From Candidatus Nitrospinota bacterium M3_3B_026 (GTDB lineage: Bacteria > Nitrospinota_A > UBA7883 > JBPRGF01), in NCBI GenBank assembly GCA_051418015.1, contig JBPRGF010000009.1:1-64000 (forward strand): DNA of 64,000 bases. Direction: 5' to 3'. The stretch's first letter is position 1, and the number at the start of each line of letters is the position of its first letter. Position numbers and translations under genes: made by a program. Shown one piece after another: positions 3,305 to 52,846 of the stretch. Under the pieces are notes generated by a model that saw only the letters and a program-made list of their open reading frames with translations, ran no database searches and was not told where the DNA came from.

Positions 3305-4222
3305 CTATCTCTTCCTTCGCAGCGCTTTTTTCAACGCCCAGCCGATATTCCTTTTCTCCTTCGGCGCCGTCATGATCCACTCGGAGAGCGCCGCCACGCG
3401 GCAGTGGTTCGAGACGATCCCTCCCTCGGTGAGGTTGTAGAAGTCCGCGGGGCCGTTTTTGCGTTTCCACGTTGTGAAAGCCCACTCCATCCATTGCTTG
3501 GTGATGAACAGGCTCTTGCGGGTGAGCACCTCCCGTCCGAAGATGTCCACATCCTTTACCATGTCGTCGCCCTGGCCAAAATCGTCCCGGCCCTCGCGCG
3601 CCCCGGCCGCCCTCGACGAATAGGCCGGGCCGCCGGGGGGGATGGAGAGGTCCTGCCCCAGGAAGCCTATCGGGTTCGCGCCCATCCTGAAGGCGAGGTC
3701 CAGCCCCACCGTGAGCACGGACCCACCGGGGATCAGGTATCCAAGCGCCGGGTTTTCCGCGGCTATCTTGACCAGCGCCGGTATGTCCGGGGCGAACTTG
3801 TTGTAGAAGACCACCTCCCCTTCCCATGCCGCCAGAGCGTCTGGGTGGATGATGGTGGGGGCGGCGAGGATTTTTCCCTTTGACGGCGCCCCGGCGAAAA
3901 AGCGCGCCACGTCCGGCTGCGGGTCCAGGGTGACCACGATGGAAGGCTCGGCCCCCTCCTCGGCCAGCCCCGCGAAGATCGCGTCGACGCATATGATCAG
4001 GGCCCTGCCCCGGGCCATGGACAGCCACTGGACGTTCTTGTCCAGGGAGGGGCCCGCGCCCACGACAAGGGAGGGGACACCCGGGAACTTTTCGAATAGC
4101 GCCGCCACGCCTGTGGAGCGGGCTATGGCGCTCCGGTTCGCCTCGAAGTTGGCCGTCCACAGCCCGGCGAAGCTGCGGATGGTGGCGTTCTTGACCTCGA
4201 ACAGCCGCTGGTGATCAACCAT
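3305..4222 (-). CDS. DUF115 / MptE-like (motility accessory factor Maf-like) protein
   Basis: SLVVGAGPSLDKN glycine-rich motif and overall architecture typical of DUF115 proteins associated with flagellin glycosylation. Confidence 0.5.
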   Translation of the reverse strand: MVDHQRLFEVKNATIRSFAGLWTANFEANRSAIARSTGVAALFEKFPGVPSLVVGAGPSLDKNVQWLSMARGRALIICVDAIFAGLAEEGAEPSIVVTLDPQPDVARFFAGAPSKGKILAAPTIIHPDALAAWEGEVVFYNKFAPDIPALVKIAAENPALGYLIPGGSVLTVGLDLAFRMGANPIGFLGQDLSIPPGGPAYSSRAAGAREGRDDFGQGDDMVKDVDIFGREVLTRKSLFITKQWMEWAFTTWKRKNGPADFYNLTEGGIVSNHCRVAALSEWIMTAPKEKRNIGWALKKALRRKR

Positions 4223-4231
4223 GAGGCGCTA

Positions 4232-5617
4232 TTATTCTCCGGCCCGGACGACCCTGTCCCGGCCTTCCCTCTTCGCCTCGTAAAGCCCCTTGTCGGCTCT
4301 CTCGATTATGTCTTTCGGCTCGTCGTCCGGGGTAAACTCCGTGACGCCCATGGAGACGGTGACATGGATCACCTTGTCCAGGACGACGAACTCGTGGAGG
4401 CCGACGTTTTTGCGTATGCTCTCGGCCATCTTTAGAGCGTTTTTCAGCCTGGAGCGGTACAGGATCAGCGCGAACTCCTCGCCGCCGTAGCGCGCCACGG
4501 TGTCCGAGGCGCGGACGGACTCCTTTATGATCTCGGCGATCTTGGCGATGACCTGGTCGCCCGCCTGGTGGCCGTAGGTGTCGTTGAACTCTTTGAAGCG
4601 GTCTATGTCCAGCATAACGAGACAGCAGCTCTCGCCGGTACGCTTGAACTGGGCCACGGCCTCCTTGATCCTTTCGTCGAAGTAGCCGCGGTTGAAGACC
4701 CTCGTAAGCGAGTCCACGGCCTTTTCCTGCCTGGCCATCCTCAACTCTTTTTCCAGCCGGGAGATCTTCTCCCCCGCCTCGGCCACCTTCACGTTCGCCT
4801 CCACGAATTTCTCTCTCATCTCCGTGTTGGCTTTCTGGATCTCGAGGGTCTCCGCCAGGATGGCATGCTGGATTTTCTTGATCTCGTCGAGGCTGGTGGC
4901 GGCTATTACCTTCTTCGAGTAGTTGTCAAGCTTCGCCCCGTAGGATTCGCTGGAGACGGACAGGGACTGTATGTAGCCCGCCAGGGAGCCGATGATGGCT
5001 TTCAGCTCCTCCTTCTCCTGCTCGACGAGGCCGGCCTCGTTGCTCTTGTTTATGAAGAAATTGTATAGGGATCTGCTCAGCCCGTCCGCCGTCTCCACCT
5101 TAAGCCCCTCGAACCTTTTTGCGCGCTCGGTCTTGAGCGAGTCGAAAAAAGGCTCCCGCTCGTCCGCCAGCAGGATGGCCCCCTTGCTGAAGCCGTCCAG
5201 CAGCGTGACGTAGGGGGAGAGTATCTCCCTCGTCGCGTCGATGAGGTCTATCTTCTCCGGCTTCCTTTCGCCCTGCTCGATGGCGGGGGCCTGCTCCTTT
5301 TTCCCCTCGCGTCCGCCGAGGATGGAGGCGAGCCCCGACAGCAGCCCTCCTCCGCCTGCTTTTCCCTTCTCCTTCAGGCTGGCGTCGATCTTCTTGCAAA
5401 GCTGGGTATAATCTTTCTGAATCTGCTGGACCTGGAAGATGTTCTGCGCGGACTTGACTCGCCCCGAGAGCTTGTCGAGGGCGTTCTCCAGATTCTTGTC
5501 GCCTTTCACCAGCGCACGGGCGTGGGAGATCATCGAGGCGACCAGGTCCTGGTAAGACTTCGTAAGGCTTTCCAGGTACTTGTTCTTTTCCTTGTACCTT
5601 TTAAGTATTTCGCTCAC
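4232..5617 (-). CDS. GGDEF-domain diguanylate cyclase with N-terminal coiled-coil region
   Basis: RYGGEEFALIL active-site motif; DRFKEFNDTYGHQAGDQVI. Confidence 0.85.
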   Translation of the reverse strand: MSEILKRYKEKNKYLESLTKSYQDLVASMISHARALVKGDKNLENALDKLSGRVKSAQNIFQVQQIQKDYTQLCKKIDASLKEKGKAGGGGLLSGLASILGGREGKKEQAPAIEQGERKPEKIDLIDATREILSPYVTLLDGFSKGAILLADEREPFFDSLKTERAKRFEGLKVETADGLSRSLYNFFINKSNEAGLVEQEKEELKAIIGSLAGYIQSLSVSSESYGAKLDNYSKKVIAATSLDEIKKIQHAILAETLEIQKANTEMREKFVEANVKVAEAGEKISRLEKELRMARQEKAVDSLTRVFNRGYFDERIKEAVAQFKRTGESCCLVMLDIDRFKEFNDTYGHQAGDQVIAKIAEIIKESVRASDTVARYGGEEFALILYRSRLKNALKMAESIRKNVGLHEFVVLDKVIHVTVSMGVTEFTPDDEPKDIIERADKGLYEAKREGRDRVVRAGE

Positions 5618-5653
5618 GCGCCCTGCGGGTCCTTTCTCAAAGAGGCGGCCTGC

Positions 5654-7240
5654 CTAGCCTGTCACGATCCTTCCGGCGGCTGCGTCCTTAGCCTCGGCGC
5701 TCTCGACGGCGACGCTCCCGTTGACTATAACGTATTCCATCCCCACGGGATAGCTGTTCGGCGCCCTGTACGATGCCGTGTCGCCTATCGTCTCAGGGTC
5801 GAAGACGGTTATATCGGCGAAACTCCCCGGACGCAGCCTGCCCCTTTTCTTGATCCCGAAAAAGTCGCAGGCCATGGAGGAGCATTTTTTCACGGCCTCG
5901 GGCGTAGTGAACATCTTCTTTTCCCGGACGTACTCCTTGAAGAACTTCGGGAACGTCCCGAACGCTCTCGGGTGCGACTTTCCTATGGACAACGGCCCGT
6001 CGGCGGCGCGGGCGCCGGCGTCGGAGCCGATCATCACCCATGGTTTGCCGATTATCCTGTCCATGTTCGCCTGGCTCATGACGAAGTATATGGCCTCCAC
6101 CTGGGCCTCCTCCTCGGCCAGCAGGCCGAAGATCAGGCCGAACACGTCCTTTCCGCGAAGGGCGGCGGCCTCGGCGACGGTGAGGCCCTCCAGGTCCGCG
6201 TTCGGGCTGCCGGGGCGGACCTGGGCTATCATCACCTTGTCCCAGTATCCTGCGTCGGGATGGTTTTCGAGGATCGCTTTTTTGAAAGAATCCCGCATCC
6301 CCTCCCTTCGCAACGCCTCCAGCAGCCCCGGCCTCCCGCCGTCGAAGGCGCTGTCCGGCAGGACGACGGAAAGGCCCGTGTTGGAGGCCAGGTATGGGTA
6401 CCTGTCCGCCATGATGGGAACGCCGTCCTCCATGGCGCCCTCCAGTATCTCGAAAGCCCTGTCGAGCTTGCCCCAGTTCGCCTCCCCCGCCGTCTTCAGG
6501 TGCGACACCTGCAGCCTGACGCCGGACCGCCTGGCGACGTCGACCACCTCCTCCAGCGATTCGGTAAGCTCAGCGCCTTCGGAGCGTATGTGGGATGTGA
6601 ATACCTTGTCCCTGCGCGCCGCCTCCGAGTAAGCCTGGATGAACTCCTCCCTCTCCGCGAAGCAGGCGGGAGGGTAGACTATCCCGATGGACATCCCCAG
6701 GGCGCCGCTGTCGAGGCCCCCGGCGATGGTCTCCCGGATGGCTTTCATTTCCGCCGGGCCGGGGCCGCGCCCGTTGAGGCCGATCACGGAGCCTCTTATG
6801 GTGTTGTACCCGACGAGCGCGGCGAAGTTGACGGACGGTTTCGCGGCGGAGAGGGCCTTGAAGTAGCCGTCAAGCCCCGTCCACTCCACGTCCATCCCGA
6901 ACTGCTCTTTGTAGTCCTTCACCCTCAGCCGCCTTGTCTCTCCATCCATGGGCGCGGCGGCGTAGCCGCAGTTGCCGCCGATCTCCGTCGTCACGCCCTG
7001 GAGTATCTTCGACCTCGCGCGGGGGTCTATGAGCAGGTAGTAGTCGGAATGGGAATGAACGTCCACGAAGCCTGGCGCAACCACCCGCGCCTCGGCGTCG
7101 ATGACGCGCTTCGCTCTCCCGGGGCTGATGTCCGGGGCGATGCCGGATATGACGTCCCCCTCGACGGCGACGTCGGCCCTGTAAAGCTCTTCGGAGTCGC
7201 CGTCGGCGACGAGGCCGTTCTTGATCAACAGGTCGAACAT
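5654..7240 (-). CDS. N-acyl-D-amino-acid deacylase (D-aminoacylase), amidohydrolase superfamily
   Basis: N-terminal LIKNGLVADG...PGFVDVHSHSDYY metal-binding HxH motif; length 528 aa. Confidence 0.75.
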   Translation of the reverse strand: MFDLLIKNGLVADGDSEELYRADVAVEGDVISGIAPDISPGRAKRVIDAEARVVAPGFVDVHSHSDYYLLIDPRARSKILQGVTTEIGGNCGYAAAPMDGETRRLRVKDYKEQFGMDVEWTGLDGYFKALSAAKPSVNFAALVGYNTIRGSVIGLNGRGPGPAEMKAIRETIAGGLDSGALGMSIGIVYPPACFAEREEFIQAYSEAARRDKVFTSHIRSEGAELTESLEEVVDVARRSGVRLQVSHLKTAGEANWGKLDRAFEILEGAMEDGVPIMADRYPYLASNTGLSVVLPDSAFDGGRPGLLEALRREGMRDSFKKAILENHPDAGYWDKVMIAQVRPGSPNADLEGLTVAEAAALRGKDVFGLIFGLLAEEEAQVEAIYFVMSQANMDRIIGKPWVMIGSDAGARAADGPLSIGKSHPRAFGTFPKFFKEYVREKKMFTTPEAVKKCSSMACDFFGIKKRGRLRPGSFADITVFDPETIGDTASYRAPNSYPVGMEYVIVNGSVAVESAEAKDAAAGRIVTG

Positions 7241-9378
7241 CGGTCTCCTTGTCTTGCGATGTCAGAGGACGGCGCGGTCTTTTCCCTATCCACGCCGCCT
7301 GTGTAGATGAGCCGGTAAAGGGCTAGGTTGCGCTTTACCTTTTTCACGTAATCCCTCGTCTCGGAGTAGGGTATCATCTCCACCAACTCGTCGTCGTCGA
7401 GGTTTCCATACCGTTCGCGCCACTTGTCCGCCGCCGATTCGCCTGCGTTGTAGGCCGCGAGGGCCAGCGTCAGGTTCCCCTCGTATCTTGCCAGCAGGCC
7501 CGAGAAATAGGCCACGCCCAGGGGAATGTTTACATTAGGGTTGAAAAGGAGCCGCGGCGCGAAAGGCTTTCCGGTCTTCTCCGGCATCCCCGTGTTCTCG
7601 TAGACCCGCCTGCCCGTCGCGGGGATGATCTGCATCAGCCCCCGGGCGTCGGCGGGGGAGAGAGCGGCGGGCTCGAAGGCGGACTCCTGCCGTATGATGG
7701 CAAGCGCCAGGAAGGGGCTGACACCGTGCGTCCGCGCCTGCCCGGCGACGTTTTCCCAGTGCTCCACCGGATAATAGGCCCGCCAGGACGGACCGGAGAA
7801 ATCCAGATCCAGTGGGCCTCCGTGGTTCGCCACGAGCCGTATCGATCTGCCCGGCGCGCGCGCCCTGCGGTATTGAAGCGCAAGCCACAGCGCCTCTTCA
7901 GGGCTCCGGGTCAGGCGCCTGGAGAGGGCGTCGAGCTCAAGCCTGGCCTCGCCGTACATCTCCATCTCCACCAACGCCTCAAAGCGCCTGCGGCGGCGTT
8001 CGGCTTCCTCGTCAAGCGCCACGCCCACAGGCTCCATGCGCCCGCTCTCGTCCGGCTTCAGCGACATGACGCCATTCACGGGACGCGGGTCCGGAGGTCC
8101 GGTCAACATCCGTGTCCCGTAATAGGTATGGGGGAATCTTCCCTTCAGCTTTTCGCCCATGCGCTCCCCTCCGGCGGCGTCCCCGGCGCGCGCTTTCGCC
8201 CTCGCCGCCCAGTAGAGGAATTTTCCGTCGGCGCCGGTGTTCCTCGGGTCGCGGGAGAATTTTTCAAAAAGCCTCGCCGCCTGAGCGTGGCCGCCCTCCT
8301 GGTATTTCGTCCACCCGATCCTCCACATGATGTCGCGGGCCAGCCTGGGGTCGGGCGAAAGCTCCAGCGCCGCGGCGTATTCCTCCCCCGCCTCGCCAAG
8401 CCTGCCGGCGGATTCGGCGATCCTGCCGAGGACGTAGCGGGCGCGGGCCCTGACCTGCCGTCCGGCCCCGGAGGATGCGAGCTTCTTGAGCCTTTGCGCT
8501 GTTTGGGCGTTTTTGTCATTGTTCCAGTCGATCACGGCGATCCGGTAGTCGGCCATATGGGCGAGCCCCGAGCCTGCGTAGCGCCGGATCACCTCCTTGA
8601 AGACAGCCCTTGCGCCCGTCCTGTCCCGCGCCCTGTACTTGACCATGCCAAGCTTGTAGAGGGCCTTGGCCTTGCGGCTCTCCGAGTAGCCTATCTTCAG
8701 TATCCGCTCCAGCTCCACCGCCGCGTCGGAGTAACGAAACGCCCTGTAGAGCCGCTCCGCCCGGCCCATCCTCTGGGAGAAGGTGGCGTAAGGATAGGCG
8801 GACTTGCCAGGCGGCGCGCCTTCCTCGCGGCGAAGGCGTATTGTTTTTTCGATGATTTCCCTGTCGATGGCGGGGTCGGGATAGTCGTAATAAGCCCGCT
8901 GGTAGAGCCTGTACGCGGCGGCCTTGCGGCCGAGGGGCTCCATCCTGCGCGCCTCCATGTAAATCCTTTTCGCGCGGAATTCGGCGGGGACCGCCTCCAC
9001 GCCTATGCTCTCAAGGTATCCGCCGCACGTCTCGGAGGAGACATCGCCGCAGGCGGCGAGGAGGCGGAGCTTGTTGACCGTGGCGGCGAGGGGGCTTTTG
9101 GGGAAGTTTTTGACGAGCCTGTCCAGCGCCGGCAGGGATGCTGTGAGTCCCTCTTTTCCCTTCAGTACGGAGGCGAGGTCGCGCATGGCATAGTCGCCCA
9201 GGATGAAGGAGGGGACGGCGAGTTTTTCGAGTCTTTCGATCGCCTCTTCCGCCGCGCCGTCTTCCAGGAGCGCGCGGGCGGCGCGGTATTCATCCAGTCC
9301 GGCGGCGAAAGACGGGACGGCGGCCGCCAGCGCCGCCATGAGCGCAAGCGCCGCGGGCCTAGCGAACCAGTATTCCAT
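7225..9378 (-). CDS. Soluble lytic murein transglycosylase-like protein (TPR-rich N-terminal region plus SLT catalytic domain)
   Basis: C-terminal LAIIRQESAFEPAALSPADARGLMQIIPATG SLT motif; signal peptide MEYWFARPAALALMAALAAA; start chosen at ATG 9378 (alternative 9405); 3-prime end overlaps the upstream gene by 16 nt. Confidence 0.75.
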   Translation of the reverse strand: MEYWFARPAALALMAALAAAVPSFAAGLDEYRAARALLEDGAAEEAIERLEKLAVPSFILGDYAMRDLASVLKGKEGLTASLPALDRLVKNFPKSPLAATVNKLRLLAACGDVSSETCGGYLESIGVEAVPAEFRAKRIYMEARRMEPLGRKAAAYRLYQRAYYDYPDPAIDREIIEKTIRLRREEGAPPGKSAYPYATFSQRMGRAERLYRAFRYSDAAVELERILKIGYSESRKAKALYKLGMVKYRARDRTGARAVFKEVIRRYAGSGLAHMADYRIAVIDWNNDKNAQTAQRLKKLASSGAGRQVRARARYVLGRIAESAGRLGEAGEEYAAALELSPDPRLARDIMWRIGWTKYQEGGHAQAARLFEKFSRDPRNTGADGKFLYWAARAKARAGDAAGGERMGEKLKGRFPHTYYGTRMLTGPPDPRPVNGVMSLKPDESGRMEPVGVALDEEAERRRRRFEALVEMEMYGEARLELDALSRRLTRSPEEALWLALQYRRARAPGRSIRLVANHGGPLDLDFSGPSWRAYYPVEHWENVAGQARTHGVSPFLALAIIRQESAFEPAALSPADARGLMQIIPATGRRVYENTGMPEKTGKPFAPRLLFNPNVNIPLGVAYFSGLLARYEGNLTLALAAYNAGESAADKWRERYGNLDDDELVEMIPYSETRDYVKKVKRNLALYRLIYTGGVDREKTAPSSDIARQGDRCSTC

Positions 9379-10330
9379 GGCGGTTCGTGAAATGGGAGAA
9401 CTCATCCAGATTCAGTATCCTACAGGCTATGCTCTCCGGCGTGTCCTCTTCGGCTACCGGGACGAAAACCGCGCCCTCCGCCTTGCGGAACCACGTGACC
9501 TGCCTCTTGGCGAACGCCCTGGTTTCCTTCTTTATGATGTCCGCGGACTCTTCAGGATCCACGGCCCCCTCGGCCTCTTTCAAAAGCGTTCTATAACCGA
9601 GGCTTCGCATTGGTTTTACCCTGTCATTATAACCCATCTCCAAGAGCCGTTTTACCTCCCCGCGCCATCCGTCCCGCAGGCTCTCCTCCACTCTGCGGTC
9701 AATCCGCCGGTAGAGGACGTCCCGGGGAGGGTCGAGAACCAAGAAGAGCGTGTCCCACTCGGCCTTAGCCGGGTTTTCCCGGAAAAACTCGCTTAAGCGG
9801 CGGCCGGTGGTCATGTATACCCCCACAGTCCTGCGCGTCCTGAAGGTGTCGTTGGGATGGATCCGCGCCGCCCATTCCGGGTCCACGGACACGGCGAGGC
9901 TGTACAACCCCTCCTGCCCCTCCCCGGCGGCGATCTCGTCCATCCTGCGTTCGGCCTCGGGGCTTATCCTCGCGCCGAGGTGGAGCGTCTCGACGAGGGC
10001 TTTTATGTACAACCCCGTTCCTCCGGCGACCAGGGGGACGCGACCCTTGCTCCAGAGATCCCGCGCTATCCTGCCCGCCTCTTTTCTGAACCTGGCGGCG
10101 GAGTAGTCCTCATCCGGGTCCGCCACGTCCAGCAGGTGATGGCGGACACGCTTTCTCAGGCTTTCGGAGGGTTTGGCGGCGCCTATGTCGAAATGACGAT
10201 ACACCTGGACGGAGTCGGCGGAGATTATCTGGGCGCCGAGCTTTTCGGCCAGGGCCACCCCCACCTCCGACTTGCCGCTTGCCGTCGGCCCCGCCAGGAC
10301 GATCAGCGGAGGTTTTCTCCCGTCAGGCAT
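9359..10330 (-). CDS. miaA: tRNA dimethylallyltransferase
   Basis: LIVLAGPTASGKSEVGVALAEKLGAQIISADSVQVYRHFDIGAAKP P-loop and MiaA signature. Confidence 0.9.
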   Translation of the reverse strand: MPDGRKPPLIVLAGPTASGKSEVGVALAEKLGAQIISADSVQVYRHFDIGAAKPSESLRKRVRHHLLDVADPDEDYSAARFRKEAGRIARDLWSKGRVPLVAGGTGLYIKALVETLHLGARISPEAERRMDEIAAGEGQEGLYSLAVSVDPEWAARIHPNDTFRTRRTVGVYMTTGRRLSEFFRENPAKAEWDTLFLVLDPPRDVLYRRIDRRVEESLRDGWRGEVKRLLEMGYNDRVKPMRSLGYRTLLKEAEGAVDPEESADIIKKETRAFAKRQVTWFRKAEGAVFVPVAEEDTPESIACRILNLDEFSHFTNRHGILVR

Positions 10331-11027
10331 AACGGACGGCTATCTTCCTGTACTCGGCGGAGTCCTCCCCCTCCGGTGTCCTCAAAGTAAGGGGCGGCTC
10401 GACGACTCTCTTTTCCTCCCCGTCCCCGCCGAGCCGGGCCTCGGAGAGGAACACGTTCGGCGGGCCGCCTGGAACGGGGATGATCTCCCTGTACCGGATC
10501 TCGTGAAAACCGGCGCTTTCCAGTATTTTCTCGTATTCGCCCCTGCGCTCCGGGATCATGCTTATGGTCATGGTCCCTCCTTCGGCGAGCAGGCGCGAGG
10601 CCGTCCGCGCAAGCCCTTCCAGCGTCATCTTTGTCTCATGCCGGGCGGCGGCCCTGGCCGGGTCGGCGCAGAGTCTGCCTGCTCCGGCCTTGTAATACGG
10701 AGGGTTCGAGACCACCGCGCCGAACTTGGTTGATCCCAGGATATCCGGGACGCGCAGCATGTCCGCGGCGATCACGTGATATCGCGCCAGTCCGCTGCGC
10801 CTTGCGTTCCAGAGAGCGGCCGAGGCCAGGGCGGGGTTTATCTCCACCGCGAAAGGCTCCAGCCCCGGGTTGTCCATCCCGATCAGGATGGAGACGACGC
10901 CCGCGCCCGCGCCAAGGTCTATCATCGACAGGGAGCCGCGGGGCCGGAAAAAGTCCGCGAGTATGAACGAATCACGGTTGTACCTGTATCCGGCGCCGGC
11001 CTGGGCGAGCGTAAGGGATGGACTCAT
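10323..11027 (-). CDS. Class I SAM-dependent N6-adenine methyltransferase (TrmN6/YfiC-like)
   Basis: VVSNPPYY (NPPY) catalytic motif; IDLGAGAGVVS SAM-binding motif. Confidence 0.65.
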   Translation of the reverse strand: MSPSLTLAQAGAGYRYNRDSFILADFFRPRGSLSMIDLGAGAGVVSILIGMDNPGLEPFAVEINPALASAALWNARRSGLARYHVIAADMLRVPDILGSTKFGAVVSNPPYYKAGAGRLCADPARAAARHETKMTLEGLARTASRLLAEGGTMTISMIPERRGEYEKILESAGFHEIRYREIIPVPGGPPNVFLSEARLGGDGEEKRVVEPPLTLRTPEGEDSAEYRKIAVRYA

Positions 11028-11119
11028 GGGTCTATTTTAACCGCGCGGGAGGGCAGAAGGGTAGGGCGGGATACGGCCTGGCGGCGGGGCAGGACTCCCG
11101 AATCCGCCGCCGGAGCCGT

Positions 11120-11587
11120 TTACGAGGTCACGTCCACATGCTCTCCCGGTCCGTCATCCTGGACGCGTTTTTCAAGGTTTTCCTCGGCGATTCTGGACAT
11201 GGCTTCCTTTATCCGCCGCTGTTCCTCGGGGGGGATCTCTCTGATGACCTCGTCCTCTTTCTTGTCGATCACCTTGACGACCAGTCCGCCGTTGTCGACG
11301 GTGTAGTCGCGCCGCACGTCCCTTGTCAGCAGGGCGCCGGGGTTTTCCCGCCCCTCCCGGTGATCGCCTTCACCTTGCCCGCCCGCGGCCTTCGCGGCGG
11401 CCTCCGCCGCTCCGTGTCTTTCGACCACCGCGTCTCCACGAGTGGATATCTCCACCATGTCGGAGGCTGGCTGTGATGGGGGCCTGCTTTCCGTTTCCGC
11501 TCTTTCGGGGGCCGCTCTTTGCCGGGATGCGGTCCTCGCGGCGGTCTCCGCGGCTGCTGATATATCCCGGACTTCCATTTTCCTCAT
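11120..11587 (-). CDS. flaG: Flagellar protein FlaG
   Basis: C-terminal YTVDNGGLVVKVIDKKEDEVIREIPPEE matches the conserved FlaG motif; preceded by a sigma-28-type promoter. Confidence 0.7.
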   Translation of the reverse strand: MRKMEVRDISAAAETAARTASRQRAAPERAETESRPPSQPASDMVEISTRGDAVVERHGAAEAAAKAAGGQGEGDHREGRENPGALLTRDVRRDYTVDNGGLVVKVIDKKEDEVIREIPPEEQRRIKEAMSRIAEENLEKRVQDDGPGEHVDVTS

Positions 11588-11700
11588 CCTTCCCTAGAAC
11601 GTTTTTCCAGCTATCTCCTGTGAATACAGGCGCTTGGCCGGGAACGTCCCGTCCATGACACCCGGCCCGAGCGCCAGCGGGAAATATCCCGCTGATTGTC

Positions 11701-11727
11701 TTATCGGAACGGCGGATTTAAACTTTA
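11701..11727 (-). promoter_or_regulatory. Sigma-28 (FliA)-type promoter upstream of flaG: TAAAGTTT-N11-TCCGATAA on the minus strand
   Basis: Minus-strand sequence TAAAGTTTaaatccgccgtTCCGATAA is a near-perfect match to the TAAA-N15-GCCGATAA consensus; it lies about 115 nt upstream of the flaG start. Confidence 0.65.
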
Positions 11728-11982
11728 GAACGATGTTCGAAAAAAGTAAGAATAATTTATAACAAGTTAAGTATCAATGCATTACGGTTGTTACGGTTCG
11801 GGCCCGGGCAGGACGGAAAAGGCTCTCCCCAAGGCGATGCCGGGCGGGGATGGGGCGAAATTTTCTTGCGGGCGGTATTGTCCGGGGGGCGCAAGCCGAA
11901 GGATCCCTCTGCTGCATCCGGCGCCGAGATGCTTCGTTTCGTTCAGCGTGACATTGCCGCCTCGGAGTGAGACCCTTCGCTG

Positions 11983-12018
11983 GCGCTGCCGGTATGACAC
12001 TGTAGGCAGCGCGCTTTT
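11983..12018 (+). terminator. Rho-independent terminator, plus-strand orientation, with no annotated plus-strand gene upstream
   Basis: Stem GCGCTGCC/GGCAGCGC (8 bp) with a 14-nt loop, followed by GCTTTTTTATC. Confidence 0.6.
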
Positions 12019-12062
12019 TTATCTAAGACGTCTGCATAACCCGGTCAGCGCCGCCCGGGCCG

Positions 12063-14379: not shown

Positions 14380-14895
14380 ATGACCACGCTCGAAAAGATA
14401 AAAAAGATGATCGAGGCCGACAAGGCCGTGGTGGGGAAGGATTTTCACCAGAGGATATACGAAAGCCTCAAAACCGCCATGGACAGGGCCGGGGTAACCC
14501 CCGAAGAGGCGGACGCTCTCGACTCGCGCTCCGCTGAGCGGAGGAAGATCATGACGACGCCTTTCTCCGGCCTGGTGGAGCCGCAGCTGGACGAGCTGGA
14601 AAAAAATCTTTGTTTAAGCGCCGATTACGAAATCCCCTCGCACCGGAAGGGCCTGCTCGGCGCTTTCAACAGGCTGGTCAAGAAGGCCGTCCTCAAGATA
14701 AAACTCCGCGCCGACGTACAGGTCAGCCAGCAGGCCAGGTTCAACCTCGCCGTCCTTGTCCTGGCCAGGATGACCGCCGTCCATGTGGACCTGCTCGCCG
14801 CGGCGCTGGAGAGGGAGATAGAGAAAAGGGAGACTCTTGAAAAGGACGTAGCCGGGCTGGAGGAGGAAATATCCCGCCTGAGGGAGCGGCGCTGA
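14380..14895 (+). CDS. Hypothetical protein with C-terminal coiled coil
   Basis: ATG at 14380 with GAAGGA ribosome-binding site; no recognisable family; stop overlaps the start of the downstream glycosyltransferase (ATGA). Confidence 0.45.
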
Positions 14896-15968
14896 TGGGA
14901 GAGGGTGGGGTTCACCAGTTCACCTCCTTCGCCCGGCGCGGCGACGCGGTCTATGACTACGCGGAGCTTTTGCGGGGGATATTCCGCTCCTGGGGCGCGC
15001 CATCCAATATATATGTCCTCGACCCGGATCCCCCCCCTTACGACGGCGTGGCTGATTACAAAAGATACAGTCCCGCGCCGGGGGATATCCTTCTGTACCA
15101 TTTCGCCATAGGCAGCAGGCTGACGGACTTCATCCTGCGCCAGCCGGGCAAAAAGTTCATGGTGTATCACAACATGACGCCCGAGGAGTATCTTCTCGGC
15201 GCAGACAACGAAAGCTATCTGGCCGCAAGAAAAGGCGCGAGGGAGCTGGAGATGATGAGGGACGCCCTCGACGGCGTCTTCGCGGTCTCTGAATACAACG
15301 CCGATGACCTGCGGCGGCGCGGGGGGTATGAAGAGGTCGTCATCACGCCCATGGCGAAGGATTTTTCGAGGTTCGAGGGGGCCGCCCCTTCGCCCGCGCG
15401 GATGGAGAAATGGAAAAGCGGCAAGAAAACAATTCTTTTCATAGGCCGCGTCGTCCCGCACAAGCGGCAGGACGACCTGATAAAAGTCCTCCACGCCTAC
15501 ACCCGGCTCTACGGCCCCGAAGCGCGGCTTGTCATGCCGGGCTCGTGGAAGAATATGGAGCTTTATAAAGACAGCCTTCTCCGTCTTTCGGAAAGACTGG
15601 GGATTGCTGATCTTGTTGAAATTCCAGGGTTTATAGACGAGGAAGACTTTTTGGCGCTCTTTTCCATGGCGGATGTGTACCTGAGCCTCAGCGAGCACGA
15701 GGGGTTTGGCGTGCCCTTTCTGGAGGCGATGTGGTTCGGTGTCCCCGTGGTGGCCTACGGTGTTTGCGCGATCCCGGAGGTCTTGGGCCCCTCGGGTATC
15801 AGGCTGCGTGAAAAGGACAGCTTCGCCGCCGCCGCCGTGTTGCGGGAACTTTTCGAGAACAGGGAGCTGAAGGGACGGATAGTGGAAGGGCAGAGGAAGC
15901 GGCTGGAGGATTTCTCGCCCCGCCGCCTCGAGGCGGTTTTGAGAGAGGCGCTGGCGTCCAGGGCGTGA
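14895..15968 (+). CDS. Glycosyltransferase family 4 (GT1-fold, Glycos_transf_1)
   Basis: EGFGVPFLEAMWFGVPVV signature of the retaining GT4 C-terminal domain. Confidence 0.8.
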   Translation: MGEGGVHQFTSFARRGDAVYDYAELLRGIFRSWGAPSNIYVLDPDPPPYDGVADYKRYSPAPGDILLYHFAIGSRLTDFILRQPGKKFMVYHNMTPEEYLLGADNESYLAARKGARELEMMRDALDGVFAVSEYNADDLRRRGGYEEVVITPMAKDFSRFEGAAPSPARMEKWKSGKKTILFIGRVVPHKRQDDLIKVLHAYTRLYGPEARLVMPGSWKNMELYKDSLLRLSERLGIADLVEIPGFIDEEDFLALFSMADVYLSLSEHEGFGVPFLEAMWFGVPVVAYGVCAIPEVLGPSGIRLREKDSFAAAAVLRELFENRELKGRIVEGQRKRLEDFSPRRLEAVLREALASRA

Positions 15969-47425: not shown

Positions 47426-48628
47426 TCAGGAGCCGGGAGGGGTGAACAGCACGTCGTCGTTCGGAAGGAAGACGTCCGGGCCGGTGGAGTAGAGCGCGAC
47501 TTCTCCGTCGCTTTTTTCGAACCTGTAAGGGTTGTTCCAGGGATCCAGGAGGTCCGGTTGGCGGATGATTCCAGCTTTGGCGAGCTGGTCCAGACTTTCG
47601 GGCAGTCCGCCGCGCAGGACGTTATATATTTCGAGCCCCCTTGCTATTTTCTTGAGGCCGCCCCTCGCCTGAATGGCGTTCACCCGCGACATGCCGCTCT
47701 TTTGCGCCTCGATGAGCTCCGGCCACCTGGCCATCTGCCAGTACAGCCCGCCCACCACCACCGCAAGCAGCGCGGCGGTGATGACAAGGCGCATCGTGAG
47801 CCCGGCGCGGTCCGCTGTCTTCGTTTCCTCTTTTTTCTTTTTGGCGGGTTTTATTATCCCGAGTTCCAGGAGGCTTTTGATCGCCTCCAGCGACTCAAAA
47901 CTCCCCTGCCGGGCGGAGTCCAGCGTCTCCCGGATGCTTTTGCCCTGGCCGATGACGGAGAGGACGGCGACCTGCTGGTCCGAGAGCGTGACGCCCCGGG
48001 CGCTCAATATGTCGTACTCCAAAGACGAGCGGAAATCCCCTTGCGCGTTCTCCCGCGGCTTGGCGGCCAGCGAGTCGTCCTCCTCTTCCTCGCCGATTAT
48101 GTTTTTCACGATGAACGTGTCGAAAGGGGGGAGCCCCGCCGCCACCCTGGGCCACTCGTCGGCGACCCTGCACCCCTCCATCAGCAGCGCGTCCACGTCC
48201 ATCGGCGTCATCACCTTGTTGTTGTACTTGACGCCCTTCATGGGGGCGAACTCGTATTCCCCCTTTTTCCAGCGCAGGGCATAGTAGACGTTGTCGATCA
48301 CCTGGCGGCGGATGAACTCCACCAGGGTCTGCGTGCTGATCCTTCTTGCCAGGATGTCCCAGTACGGCTTGAGCTTGTCCTCGTGCTCCTTTTTGACCGC
48401 GCTCCACTCCTGCGGGGATATGACGGCGTTGGAGACCAGGCTTCCCCCCAGCCTGGTTTCGTCCCTTTGCGGGGAGCTTTCGGCGTATATGATGGCGCCG
48501 TTGTCGAAGGTGATCCTGACCGTCTCGTCCTTTTCGGTCAGCGTCAGCCTGCCGGTTTTTCCCTCCAGCTTTATCATCTGGAGTATGTTCATGATGTTGA
48601 AGTCGTCGAGACTTCCCTTCAGCGCCAT
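47426..48628 (-). CDS. PATAN (DUF4388)-domain protein with single TM helix and C-terminal type II secretion GspG-like pseudopilin domain
   Basis: N-terminal MALKGSLDDFNIMNILQMIKLEGKTGRL (DUF4388/PATAN); TM helix LTMRLVITAALLAVVVGGLYW; C-terminal LLDPWNNPYRFEKSDGEVALYSTGPD resembles the GspG C-terminal motif; ATG 48628 overlaps the upstream stop (ATGA). Confidence 0.6.
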   Translation of the reverse strand: MALKGSLDDFNIMNILQMIKLEGKTGRLTLTEKDETVRITFDNGAIIYAESSPQRDETRLGGSLVSNAVISPQEWSAVKKEHEDKLKPYWDILARRISTQTLVEFIRRQVIDNVYYALRWKKGEYEFAPMKGVKYNNKVMTPMDVDALLMEGCRVADEWPRVAAGLPPFDTFIVKNIIGEEEEDDSLAAKPRENAQGDFRSSLEYDILSARGVTLSDQQVAVLSVIGQGKSIRETLDSARQGSFESLEAIKSLLELGIIKPAKKKKEETKTADRAGLTMRLVITAALLAVVVGGLYWQMARWPELIEAQKSGMSRVNAIQARGGLKKIARGLEIYNVLRGGLPESLDQLAKAGIIRQPDLLDPWNNPYRFEKSDGEVALYSTGPDVFLPNDDVLFTPPGS

Positions 48629-50538
48629 CAGTAGTAGTCCTTCATGAATACCGTGTTCATCGCCAGCCAGTACAGGGCCGCCGCCGCGAGGAAGACGGCG
48701 TGCTCCCTGGCGAGTTCGGCCGACAGGGGCGTTTTGTATATCACAAGCTCGGAGCCTATCATGGCCACGGCGTACACAAGCATAACGCTGGTTATGAAGG
48801 TGAGCGGAAAGCCAGCCGCGGCCTCGTGGTGGTAGGATCTTCCGACGCCGGGGAGGAGCCTGTCCAGCCATCCGGCGGTCCTGTTCCTTTTTCTCGCGAA
48901 CTGGCGCATTTCCTTTCGTTTCCTGTCCTTTTTCGCGCTCGACACTCCCCCCTTGCTGAGCGTGGCTGCCACGCACTGGTTGCACTTCGGGAAAGGCGAG
49001 GCCAGGCGTATGGGAGGACGGAAGGGCGTCCCGCAGGAGGCGCAGACCTGGTGGGAGAGCCTCCTGTTCCAGAAGAGGGCCGCCGCGCCGAGCAGCAGGA
49101 CGAAGCCGGCGGACGCCCACCTGTAGAGCTCTTTCGATACGGGGCCGAAATAGACGCTCCACAAAACATCGGCGACGGTCTCCGTTTCCCGCGCCATGGC
49201 CCGCTCATAGCGGGAGAGGTCCCTGGATGTTATGGGAAAGTCGGCCACCTTGTTCTCGCTCCCCTCGCCGGTCGCCTCCACGAGCTCCCTTGTCCTGTCC
49301 AGGTCTATGGACAGGGCGATGTTGTACTCTTTTTCGGAGTCCTTGGTCTTGGCCATGAAAGCGTAGGCGTTCGACAGGTTGAAATGCGCCTCCACCGACC
49401 GCGGGTCGGCCTTGATGGCTTTCTCGTACATGTCGACGGTCTTGTCATATTCCTTCGCCAGGAAGTAGACGTTGCCCTTGTTGACCAGCGCCCGGACGTT
49501 GTCCGGGTCTTTTTCGAGCATCATGTCGTAATACCCGATGGCGGCGTCCTTGTCCTGCCTGAGCTTGTTGAGGTAGCCGAGGGCGAAGGCGGCTATTCCG
49601 GCGTCGGGGTTTTTCTCAAGCTCTTGCTCCAGCCTTTTTTTGGTCGAGTAGTCCCAGGTGTTTTCGGAGAGCAGATAGAGCGCCCTGTATGTCTCCGCGT
49701 CCGGCAGGGTCACGCCCCGGGCCATGTAATGGAAGGTGTAGGGGCCGGAGAAGAGGAACAGGACGAAAAGCGCGACCACTGCCTTCCCCCCCGTCTTGAG
49801 GTACGGCCACAGGAACAGCGGGATGGCCAGCAGGAAGACGAGCCATCCGCCCACCGCCAGCGGGACCAGCAGGACGAGCGCTCCCATCACGGCCTTCCAC
49901 GCCCCCTCGGGATGGGTGGGGATGAAATCGGTGATGTCCGACAGCAGGGCCCTGTAGTTCTTCGCCGCGCAGGCCAGAAAGGTGAGCAGGAAGGCCACCA
50001 GCAATGCCATGTATGCGTATCTGGCGGCGGCGGCTATGAACTTGCCGCGCTGTATCCTGTTCGAGAAAAGCGCCCTCACCCCGGCCGCGGCCTGGGCCCC
50101 GGCGTTTTTGACGTCCGTCTTGTCGCGCGCGATGATGGCGTGGGCCAGGAAAAAACGCGCCCGGGGATGGTCCGGCGCGAACATGACGGCGTGCTGGGCG
50201 GCGGTCACCGCGGTTTCGCCGTCCCCTTTATCGAGGGTCTCCCTCCCGACAGCCAGGGCGATGTCCGCCAGCGGGAAAAGGTTCCTCGTTCCAAGGTCCC
50301 GCATGGTGTTGAGTATTCTGTTGGCCTCGTCGAAGGCGCCGAGCCCGTCCCCGTCCTCGATGCGCTCCATCCAGCCCGTGAAAGCCTCCCCGAGCTCCCC
50401 GTTGGAGGCCAGGTCCTCGATCTTGAGCGCCTCTGCGCGGAAATAGCGTCCGTCTTTTATCCGGTCCTCACCGGAGGCGGGCGCGGCTGCCGAGAAAAGA
50501 AGCGCGAGGAAGGCCGCGAGCGCGGCGGTCAGTTTCAT
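48628..50538 (-). CDS. TPR-repeat polytopic membrane protein with Cys4 zinc-ribbon
   Basis: Signal/TM MKLTAALAAFLALLFSAAAPASG; several TPR units (AHFNLSNAYAF, ALVNKGNVYFL); CASCG...CNQC; 4-5 TM helices; start uncertain (ATG 50538 versus GTG 50589). Confidence 0.6.
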   Translation of the reverse strand: MKLTAALAAFLALLFSAAAPASGEDRIKDGRYFRAEALKIEDLASNGELGEAFTGWMERIEDGDGLGAFDEANRILNTMRDLGTRNLFPLADIALAVGRETLDKGDGETAVTAAQHAVMFAPDHPRARFFLAHAIIARDKTDVKNAGAQAAAGVRALFSNRIQRGKFIAAAARYAYMALLVAFLLTFLACAAKNYRALLSDITDFIPTHPEGAWKAVMGALVLLVPLAVGGWLVFLLAIPLFLWPYLKTGGKAVVALFVLFLFSGPYTFHYMARGVTLPDAETYRALYLLSENTWDYSTKKRLEQELEKNPDAGIAAFALGYLNKLRQDKDAAIGYYDMMLEKDPDNVRALVNKGNVYFLAKEYDKTVDMYEKAIKADPRSVEAHFNLSNAYAFMAKTKDSEKEYNIALSIDLDRTRELVEATGEGSENKVADFPITSRDLSRYERAMARETETVADVLWSVYFGPVSKELYRWASAGFVLLLGAAALFWNRRLSHQVCASCGTPFRPPIRLASPFPKCNQCVAATLSKGGVSSAKKDRKRKEMRQFARKRNRTAGWLDRLLPGVGRSYHHEAAAGFPLTFITSVMLVYAVAMIGSELVIYKTPLSAELAREHAVFLAAAALYWLAMNTVFMKDYY

Positions 50539-50585
50539 TTGGCGGAACACTCGGCGGTCCGAAAGGTTCAGTCGCCCGTCGTCCT

Positions 50586-51086
50586 TCACTCCTTGAACAT
50601 GTCGTCCAGCCTGTCTTTGACCGAATCGGAGTAGCCGGACTCGAGCTGTTGTTTCTGCACCACCCTTTTCGATGCGATGTCGAATATCTTCTCCAGCTTG
50701 GCCGTCAATTCCTTGGAGTAGAGGTTCACCATGCCCACGGTCGTCTTCTCGTCAAAGACTATGGCGCTTATCGCCCTGTCGCCGACGAGGGATATGTGGA
50801 TGTGGTCTTTCTTTCCCTGGTGGAACATCACGGCGAACTCCGTCTCGCCAAGAAGGCGCGCGAGCTCCTTGGTGGCGGCGAAAGCCCCCGCCACGAGGGC
50901 CGAAAGCGACTGCGGATTAATGGTCTGCGTGCTGCCCTTCTGGGTGACCAGGTGGCCTTCCTTGTCTATCAGGAAGATGCACTTGGCGTTGGACAGCTTC
51001 AGGAACTCTTCCAGGAGTTTCTCTATCTGGTCGAAGTCCTCTTTGTAGTAGATAAGCCGCTTGTCCCGGAGCTGCTCGTCTTTCAT
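50586..51086 (-). CDS. Roadblock/LC7-domain protein (MglB-like)
   Basis: Roadblock fold signature CIFLIDKEGHLVTQKG...VGDRAISAIVFDEKTTVGMV. Confidence 0.7.
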   Translation of the reverse strand: MKDEQLRDKRLIYYKEDFDQIEKLLEEFLKLSNAKCIFLIDKEGHLVTQKGSTQTINPQSLSALVAGAFAATKELARLLGETEFAVMFHQGKKDHIHISLVGDRAISAIVFDEKTTVGMVNLYSKELTAKLEKIFDIASKRVVQKQQLESGYSDSVKDRLDDMFKE

Positions 51087-51104
51087 TCGATCGACCCGGC
51101 CTTT

Positions 51105-52331
51105 CTAAAGGTTCTCGCTGTAGATATCGATGTCGGCCTGCTCCCGGAGTTTGCCGAAAAACTCCTCCAGCAGGTTTCGCTTGCGCTGGCCCTTTATTCT
51201 GGCCACGACTTCGCTTTTCACGCTTTCCAGCGGCGCTCCGCCGAACCTGCCGGCGTTGGCCCCGTAAAAGCTTTTCACCTCGCCTTCCGTTATCCTGAGC
51301 CTCTCGTTGAGGTTCGGGATCACTTCCCTTATTATCTTGCCGATTATGACGTTCTTGGTGGCCTCGTTGCGCAGATTGTCGAGGCTGAGCTTTCTGCCGG
51401 AGAGGTATCTGTCCATCTGCTCCTGGGAGGTGAAACGTTTCGTGAAACTCTTTATCTGCGCCTCAACCTCGTCCCTGGGCGCCTGAATCTGACGCTTCTT
51501 GGCGTCTTGTAATAATAGAACATAGTTTATGAGCGACTCAAGAAGTTTCTTTTTCTCCTCCGGCGTGAACTTTTTGAAGTCCTCCACCTCGTCGCTCTTG
51601 GCGCCCAGCCGGTACTGAGCCTGGCAGTACTGGTTGAAATAGGACCTGGATATCCTGTCCGCGTTGACCTTGGCGACGTAGATCTCCTTTTTCTCCTCCG
51701 GCTTCTTCTCCTTTTTGGCTTTTTTCACCGCTTCGGCCACGGCTCCGGGCTCCTTGGCGTTTAGCCGGTCGAGTATCATCGAGGCGGTAAGCTTCAGCGT
51801 GCCGAGCACCCCCTCACCGGTGGCCGCGACGGCCTCGGTGGTGGGCGCGCCCATCCAGTTTATCTTCTCGTCCAGCTCCTCCACGCTCATGGCGGTGGGC
51901 AGGTCCCGCTTGTTCCACTGGATCACCAGGGGAATCTGCTCGATCTTCAGGCCGTACTCTTCCAGGTTTTTCTTGAGGTCCTCCAGCGACTCTATGTTCT
52001 CCGCCAGCTTGTCCTTCTGCGAGTCGGCGACGAATATGACGCCGTCCGCCCCCTGCAGGACGAGCTTGCGGGTGGAGGAGTAGTAGACCTGGCCGGGGAC
52101 GGTGTAGAGCTGGAACTTCGTGTTCATCCCCCGCACCTGGCCAAGGTCCAGGGGCAAAAAGTCGAAAAAGAGTGTCCTGTCGCCCTCGGTGGCTATGGAG
52201 GTCATCTCGCCCTTGCTCTGGTCAGGCACCTTGGTGTGGACCACCTCGAGGTTCGTCGTCTTCCCGCTCATGCCGGGACCGTAATACACCAGCTTGCAGG
52301 ATACCTCCCGCTTAGCGTAGTTTATCTGCAT
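51105..52331 (-). CDS. mglA: MglA-family Ras-like small GTPase with about 210-aa C-terminal extension
   Basis: N-terminal 195 aa align to MglA (YGPGMSGKTTNL P-loop, DFLPLDLGQVRGMNTKFQLYTVPGQVYY, IQWNKRDLP); the extension is Lys/Glu-rich and SurA-N/PpiD-like by motif resemblance only. Confidence 0.75.
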   Translation of the reverse strand: MQINYAKREVSCKLVYYGPGMSGKTTNLEVVHTKVPDQSKGEMTSIATEGDRTLFFDFLPLDLGQVRGMNTKFQLYTVPGQVYYSSTRKLVLQGADGVIFVADSQKDKLAENIESLEDLKKNLEEYGLKIEQIPLVIQWNKRDLPTAMSVEELDEKINWMGAPTTEAVAATGEGVLGTLKLTASMILDRLNAKEPGAVAEAVKKAKKEKKPEEKKEIYVAKVNADRISRSYFNQYCQAQYRLGAKSDEVEDFKKFTPEEKKKLLESLINYVLLLQDAKKRQIQAPRDEVEAQIKSFTKRFTSQEQMDRYLSGRKLSLDNLRNEATKNVIIGKIIREVIPNLNERLRITEGEVKSFYGANAGRFGGAPLESVKSEVVARIKGQRKRNLLEEFFGKLREQADIDIYSENL

Positions 52332-52368
52332 TCTCGATCAACCTTCAGAGCGTAAAGGCCCGCCGCTG

Positions 52369-52731
52369 TCACACTTCGATCCGGCCGGTTTTCTTGATCT
52401 CGTTGGCGGCCTGGAAAAGCGCCACGTTCACCTTGCCCGGGTCGACTTCCAGCTCCGTGATGGCGATGAGCACGGATTTGCCGAGATCCACGACATAAAT
52501 CCGCTTCTGGTTAGACTGAATTATATACCGCGTGAATTCGTTGTGCCCCATGTTTTTGAGGGCGTTTTTTATGTTCTGGGCGATCTGCGACATGAAAGCC
52601 CCCAGCGTCTCGGCGGTCTCGGGATCGTCCAGGTTGGACTCTATGACCATCCCCTCCTTGGTTATTATCAGCGCGCCAAGCATGTAGTCGCTGTTGCAGA
52701 GTACCTTGAGAATAGACTTTAAGGTGTTCAC
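52369..52731 (-). CDS. Roadblock/LC7-domain protein (MglB-like)
   Basis: MLGALIITKEGMVIES...VLIAITELEVDPGKVN roadblock signature; 120 aa. Confidence 0.75.
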   Translation of the reverse strand: MNTLKSILKVLCNSDYMLGALIITKEGMVIESNLDDPETAETLGAFMSQIAQNIKNALKNMGHNEFTRYIIQSNQKRIYVVDLGKSVLIAITELEVDPGKVNVALFQAANEIKKTGRIEV

Positions 52732-52846
52732 ACGTCGTCTCCGCTCAGAAGCGGCCCTCGCGCCCGCGGCCCGGCGGCCTTGCGGGCAGCCCTAAAGGTG
52801 TTCACGCGCCTGTTCCCCCGCCGGTCCCCGGCCCTTCGCGGCGGCC

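Follow-up and report, generated by a model that had tools for sequence, protein, structure and literature searches.

A probable sigma-28-family promoter, conserved at eleven orthologous loci, before a solitary flaG-like gene of an uncultured Nitrospinota-related clade

What transcribes a flaG-like gene that stands apart from flagellin, fliD and fliS? The question is raised by the first 64,000 nucleotides (nt) of contig JBPRGF010000009.1 of Candidatus Nitrospinota bacterium M3_3B_026, the whole of which was analysed and is referred to below as the window, where a minus-strand gene for a FlaG-domain protein is preceded by an element that resembles the promoters read by sigma-28. We propose that this element is, with high probability, a functional sigma-28-family (FliA/SigD-type) promoter that drives a monocistronic flaG mRNA, and we infer the dependence on such a sigma factor from the sequence of the element and its fate across related genomes. 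The element and its immediate surroundings can be divided as follows.

11735 to 11775, minus strand: A/T-rich tract upstream of the -35 element, a possible UP element, which includes CTTTTTT at 11745-11739
11720 to 11727, minus strand: -35 element TAAAGTTT, 8/8 to the sigma-28 consensus, with an invariant C before it and an invariant AA after it
11709 to 11719, minus strand: spacer AAATCCGCCGT of 11 nt, fixed in length and free in sequence, with only its first two positions (AA) invariant
11701 to 11708, minus strand: -10 element TCCGATAA, 7/8 to GCCGATAA, with T, A or G at the first position across relatives
11692 to 11700, minus strand: start region GACAATCAG, with the predicted start A at 11693 in a pyrimidine-A-G context

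The E. coli-type consensus for sigma-28 promoters is printed as TAAAGTTT-n11-GCCGATAA (PMC2859248), and the minus-strand element agrees with it at 15/16 positions in a host that belongs to a distant, Nitrospinota-related clade. The initial annotation of this DNA had reported such a motif with 11-nt spacing, and its coordinates and letters are exactly as claimed; its estimate of about 115 nt between promoter and gene holds as well, the -10 box ending 113 nt before the ATG at 11587 and 122 nt before that at 11578. When both strands of the window are scanned the element is unique at three mismatches or fewer, relaxed patterns such as TAAA-N14-16-CCGATA return no further site in the 64 kb, and no second sigma-28 site was found in the window or on any contig of the clade, relaxed patterns included. 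From base composition, a match with at most one mismatch is expected by chance 2.7e-4 times per window and 0.017 times per 4-Mb genome, and even DNA of 30% guanine plus cytosine (GC) would give no more than 7e-4 per 10 kb. Two other stretches of the window, 52322-52347 and 35478-35503, were considered as sigma-28 sites and rejected for their 3-4 mismatches and wrong spacing. A near-match on the Nitrospinota contig L006, TAAAGTTT-N12-GCTGATGA, was rejected as well and is ascribed to chance because the genome is AT-rich and the site falls within its SLT coding sequence. Directly upstream of the element the GC content is 29% across 11728-11790, as against 62% genome-wide, and each of the 11 orthologous loci has runs of A or T around -45 to -60, the sequence of the tract itself not being conserved; this composition suggests a putative UP element.

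Orthologous loci were drawn from a search of 5.8 billion proteins, which returned only six relatives of the window's FlaG protein, from a MiaA-based scan of species-representative genomes and from a metagenome scan based on the FlaG protein. The 11 loci compared (the window, L001, L002, L004, L084, L085, L088, L089, L090, L092 and L093) represent about six lineages, with FlaG identities that run from 70% down to 34-36% (by alignment and tblastn) and GC contents of 51-62%. Six loci were found by protein similarity alone, and L088-L093 were fetched by way of peptide patterns and not of the DNA motif, so that the test of conservation is non-circular for those loci. The element lies 120-145 nt upstream of flaG in 11/11 loci, taking the form TAAAGTTT-N11-(T/A)CCGATAA in nine of them, with variant boxes in L004 (TAAAGTTC-N11-GCCGATAC) and L093 (TCAAGTTC-N11-GCCGATAC). 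Scores at the orthologous loci are 13-15/16, and those of reverse-strand and downstream controls are 12 or lower.

Mean pairwise identities, taken over six non-redundant lineages in a gap-free alignment anchored on the element, follow the architecture of a promoter closely. The -35 octamer reaches 0.96 with 7/8 columns invariant, and the -10 octamer 0.92 with 6/8 columns invariant; the spacer between them has an identity of 0.41 and a length of 11 nt in every one of the 11 loci. The 9 nt after the -10 box are at 0.78 with 5/9 columns invariant, C.AT.AG being kept in all loci, and the flanks are at 0.34 for the 74 nt upstream, where 0/74 columns are invariant, and 0.32 for the next 40 nt of the leader. 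The gene upstream of flaG is purL in the window, L085, L088, L090 and L092, a divergent M48 peptidase gene in L001 and a gene for a divergent PKD protein in L002, and the promoter stays with flaG despite this change of neighbour. Two fixed boxes, a free spacer of fixed length and linkage to one gene are the signature of a sigma-factor site, and the initial proposal of a sigma-28 promoter driving flaG is borne out by a comparison in which both octamers and their 11-nt spacing persist at all 11 loci while flanks, leader and upstream gene have diverged. A sigma-54 promoter, as for flaG in Campylobacter jejuni, was considered and rejected, as no sigma-54 site is found in any lineage (at best 5/11 specified positions, nothing conserved), and there is no conserved sigma-70 site across the lineages.

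The transcription unit that would begin at this promoter holds the following features.

11579 to 11693, minus strand: predicted 5′ leader of 115 nt, with a Shine-Dalgarno-like CAGGAG in mid-leader (11620-11615) and the Shine-Dalgarno sequence GGGAAGGA at 11594-11587
11676 to 11693, minus strand: 5′-terminal stem-loop AGCGGGAUAUUUCCCGCU, with a stem of 7 bp and a loop of 4 nt
11629 to 11675, minus strand: second, long hairpin directly past the 5′ stem-loop
11120 to 11578, minus strand: flaG-like gene of 152 amino acids, its start revised to the second ATG (MEVRD...)
11073 to 11119, minus strand: GC-rich, terminator-like hairpin with no U-run, directly after the flaG stop codon

The open reading frame (ORF) at 11120-11587 matches the Pfam family FlaG (PF03646) at 35.2-35.3 bits, above the gathering cut-off of 23.8, and the match covers residues 96-133, in keeping with the C-terminal FlaG signature that had been noticed initially. 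The family is recognised in 7/7 orthologues, with a best E-value of 4.5e-10, and a profile built from the orthologues matches the solved FlaG structure 6JSX (E = 5.7e-4) and Bacillus subtilis YvyC, 2HC5 (E = 3.8e-3). The N-terminal two-thirds of the protein are disordered or of low complexity and are followed by a conserved core with the pattern R-DY-V-D...VVKVID...V-REIPPEE-R-I and by a conserved tail, VDVT[ST]; in the orthologue alignment core and tail are under clear purifying selection. Judged by these matches, the product is a divergent FlaG-domain protein that retains only the C-terminal core. Its true start is probably the second ATG, at 11578, which gives 152 amino acids. Orthologues begin with MEVRD, MAIRD, MIVRD or MAVRD at the equivalent of 11578, with a Shine-Dalgarno sequence at the matching distance, and the first ATG, at 11587, was rejected because it lies inside the conserved Shine-Dalgarno sequence GGGAAGGA(G/T)G and because the orthologue starts align with 11578.

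Transcription is predicted to start at the A at 11693, 8 nt past the -10 box, which is the position proposed in the initial annotation, because a pyrimidine-A-G found 7-9 nt past the -10 box is invariant across the loci and fits the usual geometry of sigma-28 promoters. The leader that would result ranges from 93 to 137 nt across lineages. In the window it folds at -51.4 kcal/mol (z = -3.6 against shuffles), and a GC-rich 5′-proximal hairpin is present in 10/11 lineages, its sequence and offset differing in each; we infer a stabilising role for it. A conserved leader structure was considered and dropped, since only the window and L085 (z = -3.4) beat their shuffles clearly and the sequences are too diverged to align. 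A search of Rfam with the leader and the purL-flaG spacer gave nothing at gathering score, and the sole match at E ≤ 1, of 17 bits, lies on the antisense strand of the flaG coding sequence. A flagellar leader under CsrA control would show conserved GGA motifs in loops, one of them overlapping the Shine-Dalgarno sequence; several lineages have many such motifs close to that sequence and in mid-leader, conserved neither in position nor in sequence. The Shine-Dalgarno-like motif in mid-leader is CAGGAG in the window and GGAGGA in L084 and L085. At L089 (about 455-512), L090 and L092, an upstream ORF of 15 codons, MNREFSLNVMRYLWG, begins with AAGGAG-N5-ATG and has its stop codon 2 nt before the flaG ATG, which may point to translational coupling or control. 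The leader could be a dedicated device of post-transcriptional control, setting the dosage of FlaG independently of flagellin for a flaG that is detached from the flagellin-fliD-fliS group and has its own sigma-28 promoter, an idea that we regard as doubtful. We know of no description of such leader-based dosage control for FlaG.

At its other end, flaG is followed by a 99-nt intergenic stretch that folds at -35.4 kcal/mol, and at the equivalent place L002, L084 and L085 carry canonical terminators, a hairpin plus a T-run, in gaps of 200-270 nt; the gap between flaG and the TrmN-like methyltransferase gene is 92 nt in the window and 60 nt in L001. In every lineage examined, the methyltransferase gene has a conserved TAnAAT box of its own, some 6 nt ahead of its ATG. 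Because of the hairpin after the stop codon, the terminators of the relatives and the next gene's own box, flaG is most probably monocistronic. The initial annotation had tied the locus to the late flagellar regulon, which is too broad a statement, since the tie extends to flaG only: a terminator-like hairpin follows flaG, and the gene after it comes with a -10 box of its own. In the window the TAnAAT box reads TAAAAT (11039-11034, minus strand) and precedes an ATG at 11027 with no Shine-Dalgarno sequence, and the relatives have TAGAAT, TAAAAT or TACAAT; the regions concerned are 11025-11045 in the window and about 2585-2606 in L001, 3920-3945 in L002 and 1325-1350 in L084. This arrangement suggests that the methyltransferase-miaA unit gives a leaderless mRNA.

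In all loci of the clade flaG has purL or another gene upstream and the methyltransferase-miaA pair downstream, and in 11/11 it is detached from flagellin, fliD and fliS. The window (3305-11578, minus strand), L002, L004, L089, L090 and L092, from genomes of 51-62% GC, share a same-strand order of seven genes: flaG, the TrmN-like methyltransferase gene, miaA, and genes for an SLT/TPR lytic transglycosylase, an amidohydrolase, a GGDEF protein and an MptE-like protein. The last of these is weakly PseD-like (flagellin modification), at 45.5 bits, far below the cut-off. The spacer between purL and flaG is 335 nt long in the window, as against about 100 nt in L085; it lacks a counterpart in the relatives and has no homology with the closest of them, L001, beyond about -80. 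It holds, at 11983-12020 on the plus strand, a terminator-like hairpin, GCGCTGCC-N14-GGCAGCGC followed by TTTTTT, that points away from both genes, and a 60-codon plus-strand ORF (11788-11970) ends just before it; the two could represent a small divergent transcript or a relic. As for the host itself, its species is absent from the species-representative genome set, and the nearest genomes are uncultured Nitrospinota metagenome-assembled genomes, the best MiaA identity in the species-representative scan being 57%, to JACQZB01, which carries the flaG-promoter unit as L004.

Several observations weigh against a sigma-28 promoter that serves a single flagellar gene. The match to FlaG takes in no more than profile positions 57-94 of 101, at the C-terminal core, the scores for the FlaG equivalogs of NCBIfam are 24.5 and 18.4 bits where the cut-offs are 117 and 107, and the AlphaFold model is poor, with a predicted local distance difference test (pLDDT) score of 48.6 and a top Foldseek match, 2HC5, that is not significant (E = 0.11). 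It is because of the C-terminal-only match, the low equivalog scores, the poor model and the non-significant fold match that we speak of a divergent FlaG-domain protein, and a structure-based confirmation of the FlaG fold was dropped on account of the model and its weak resemblance to YvyC. The hairpin after flaG has no U-run in the window and in L001, which may allow some downstream read-through. A Pfam sweep of essentially all ORFs in the 64-kb window found no gene for any sigma factor, fliA included, and none for FlgM, flagellin, hook, motor or chemotaxis, in agreement with the earlier remark that the window has no flagellin gene, and the related contigs, which bring the clade DNA to about 150 kb overall, hold no such flagellar gene either. 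With no sigma-28 factor gene in the window or the related contigs, its presence in the genome is therefore assumed. To our knowledge, no cultured Nitrospina has been seen to bear flagella. The usual clusters of flagellar genes lie elsewhere, however, so that their absence from these contigs says little. As indirect support for such a factor, flagellar assembly and chemotaxis genes are reported in the core genome of Nitrospina and Nitromaritima, both Nitrospinota (PMC5029188), and homologues of FliO (PMC12248157) and of FlgV, which is described as co-conserved with sigma-28 (PMC11607428), are reported from the phylum. Finally, many good FliA sites in E. coli are bound yet unproductive, these being mostly intragenic and their conservation not assessed (PMC4183435), and a good motif alone is therefore no proof of activity.

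Four other explanations were weighed against the promoter that we propose. That the element is a chance match is suggested by the A/T-rich intergenic setting, with 29% GC just upstream, and by a consensus that is itself A/T-rich, yet the expectation does not exceed 7e-4 per 10 kb even at 30% GC, and the recurrence of the element at 11/11 orthologous loci, with flanks only about 33% identical, effectively refutes chance, to which we give next to no weight. The conserved block might instead be the operator of a regulator, or an RNA element in a longer leader transcribed from a sigma-70 promoter in the A/T-rich tract, TTGATA-17-TATTCT at 11777-11749. Such a sigma-70-like site does exist, at 9/12 positions and 22 nt upstream of the element, and the 9 nt past the -10 box are conserved beyond the strict need of sigma-28; against this, the site is unconserved in a flank with no invariant column, Rfam offers no family match, and the conserved bases coincide exactly with both sigma-28 octamers at 11-nt spacing, the intervening bases being free, a pattern unlike that of a palindromic operator or of a base-paired RNA, the boxes not being mutually complementary. 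We consider this explanation highly improbable.

The remaining two accept the promoter and question its purpose or its reach. Sigma-28-family factors have been repurposed elsewhere, for the late genes of Chlamydia and as WhiG in Streptomyces, and the element might likewise serve a non-flagellar programme in a lineage without flagella, its FlaG-domain protein having lost its flagellar role. The separation of flaG from flagellin, fliD and fliS in 11/11 loci, where distant relatives keep flagellin-flaG-fliD-fliS together, the retention of only the C-terminal core of the domain and the lack of any flagellar gene in about 150 kb of clade DNA are all in line with this. The flagellar and chemotaxis genes in the core genome of Nitrospina and Nitromaritima (PMC5029188) and the FliO and FlgV homologues of the phylum speak against it, the lack of flagellar genes here weighs little given their usual clustering elsewhere, and core and tail are under clear purifying selection, the conserved tail being a parallel to the C-terminal strand by which the C. 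jejuni protein is predicted to dock on FlhA; a repurposed factor thus seems very unlikely to us. Read-through of the U-less hairpin would extend the sigma-28 transcript into the methyltransferase gene, miaA and the genes for SLT, amidohydrolase, GGDEF and MptE-like proteins, and would couple them in part to late flagellar timing. It would agree with the missing T-run and the short gaps (92 and 60 nt) in the window and L001, with the preservation of the seven-gene order from 51% to 62% GC genomes and with the plausible flagellar connection of the SLT, GGDEF and weakly PseD/Maf-like MptE proteins. However, the hairpin-plus-T-run terminators in the 200-270 nt gaps of L002, L084 and L085 and the methyltransferase gene's own conserved TAnAAT box in every lineage examined argue against it, methyltransferase and miaA are housekeeping genes of tRNA modification, and Nitrospinota contigs without flaG still show the order miaA-SLT-amidohydrolase. 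We therefore hold coupling by read-through to be quite unlikely.

For the sigma-28-family promoter of a monocistronic flaG, we propose the following sequence of events. Region 4 of the sigma factor would read TAAAGTTT and region 2 would read nCCGATAA, with the fixed 11-bp spacer between them, and the C-terminal domains of the alpha subunits probably find an UP element in the A/T-rich tract around -45 to -60. Transcription would start at the conserved A at 11693 and yield an mRNA with a 115-nt structured leader, opened by the initial stem-loop, followed by the 152-codon flaG from 11578 and ending at the hairpin past the stop codon. If it behaves like the FlaG proteins that have been characterised, FlaG would be made late in flagellar assembly, alongside flagellin, and by analogy with C. 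jejuni (PMC11536152) it may compete with FliS-flagellin complexes for the export gate protein FlhA and in this way restrict the length of the filament.

Other parts of the window merit description in their own right. On the minus strand, 47426-53812 encodes a DUF4388 protein, a TPR protein, a Roadblock/LC7 protein, a 408-amino-acid fusion of an Arf-like small GTPase with SurA_N, a second Roadblock/LC7 protein and a TPR protein, a cluster reminiscent of polarity or motility modules of the MglA/MglB type, the GTPase fusion being unusual. The stretch 30800-33300 is a low-GC island, with GC at third codon positions of 0.34-0.58 as against about 0.8 elsewhere and with ORFs of 223, 382 and 247 amino acids that have no Pfam match, and is probably foreign DNA. 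A 580-amino-acid ORF at 1190-2932 on the plus strand, also found in L087 (10475-12193), fuses IspH/LytB (residues 7-279) to a UbiA-family prenyltransferase (307-548). The DegT-family aminotransferase at 34341-35471 (minus strand) is closest to PseC, at 336 bits against a cut-off of 423.5, and together with a second MptE-like/DUF115 protein of 478 amino acids at 54785-56221 (plus strand) and a GT4 glycosyltransferase at 14895-15968 (plus strand) it may belong to a nonulosonic-acid or glycosylation system, the scores of all three being below family cut-offs. Because their likeness to PseD and PseC is below the NCBIfam cut-offs, the MptE-like and DegT proteins were not counted as flagellar evidence. 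A sigma-54-dependent response regulator of the NtrC/AtoC type is encoded at 62384-63784 on the minus strand and shows that the organism uses sigma-54; its FlgR and FlbD scores are below cut-off, and it is therefore no evidence for a flagellar hierarchy.

Sigma-28 promoters before flaG are already known from C. jejuni and B. subtilis, as is the consensus from E. coli, and the element as such is no surprise to the specialist. Like the class 3 FliA promoters of E. coli and Salmonella, such as those of fliC, tar and aer (PMC2859248, PMC4183435), it has two octamers at 11-nt spacing, lies in the same orientation upstream of a late flagellar gene and has a predicted start about 8 nt past the -10 box. 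It differs from them in the first base of the -10 box, which is T, A or G here and fixed as G there, in the additional conservation of a C before the -35 box, of AA after it and of C.AT.AG at the start, and in a long structured leader of 93-137 nt; sigma dependence at our locus is putative. In C. jejuni, flaG is transcribed from a sigma-28 promoter, and its product, which the flagellar export apparatus secretes, limits filament length and is predicted to dock on FlhA by its last six residues (PMC11536152). Both systems place the same gene family under a sigma-28 promoter and share a conserved C-terminal segment, whereas the gene studied here has no sigma-54 site, is monocistronic in our reading, is not beside fliD/fliS or flagellin and encodes a longer N-terminal region of low complexity.

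The B. subtilis counterpart, yvyC (flaG), heads the SigD-dependent operon yvyC-fliD-fliS-fliT, and the hag promoter of that species has an UP element of the kind that boosts SigD promoters. The likeness extends to a sigma-28-family promoter before flaG, to an A/T-rich upstream tract and to the profile similarity with YvyC; unlike the yvyC operon, flaG here stands alone, and the role of its tract as an UP element is suggested by composition. In more distant bacteria (L097, L105 and L115) the order is flagellin-flaG-fliD-fliS, and their flaG encodes about 110-128 amino acids that match the Pfam profile in full (82.7 bits); it is usually not preceded directly by a sigma-28 site and presumably relies on the flagellin promoter. 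The FlaG core is similar to theirs, whereas flaG of our clade has moved to the start of a conserved run of genes on one strand and has its own promoter. What is mildly unusual here is the orphan, separately promoted flaG, the lineage-specific conservation around the start and the long structured leader.

Much of the outcome is otherwise routine annotation, in that flaG has been given a corrected start codon and is identified as a late gene that is probably monocistronic. From the 11 aligned sites a position weight matrix can be built with which to find the remaining late flagellar regulon in the genomes of the clade. The comparison also offers an evolution-validated instance of the E. coli-type sigma-28 code, unchanged in a deep, uncultured, Nitrospinota-related clade, and lends support to the view that flagella are built in this phylum, by some of its members, with late genes in a conventional hierarchy. 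Furthermore, it shows that flaG can stand alone under a promoter of its own and need not be a passenger in a flagellin or fliD operon.

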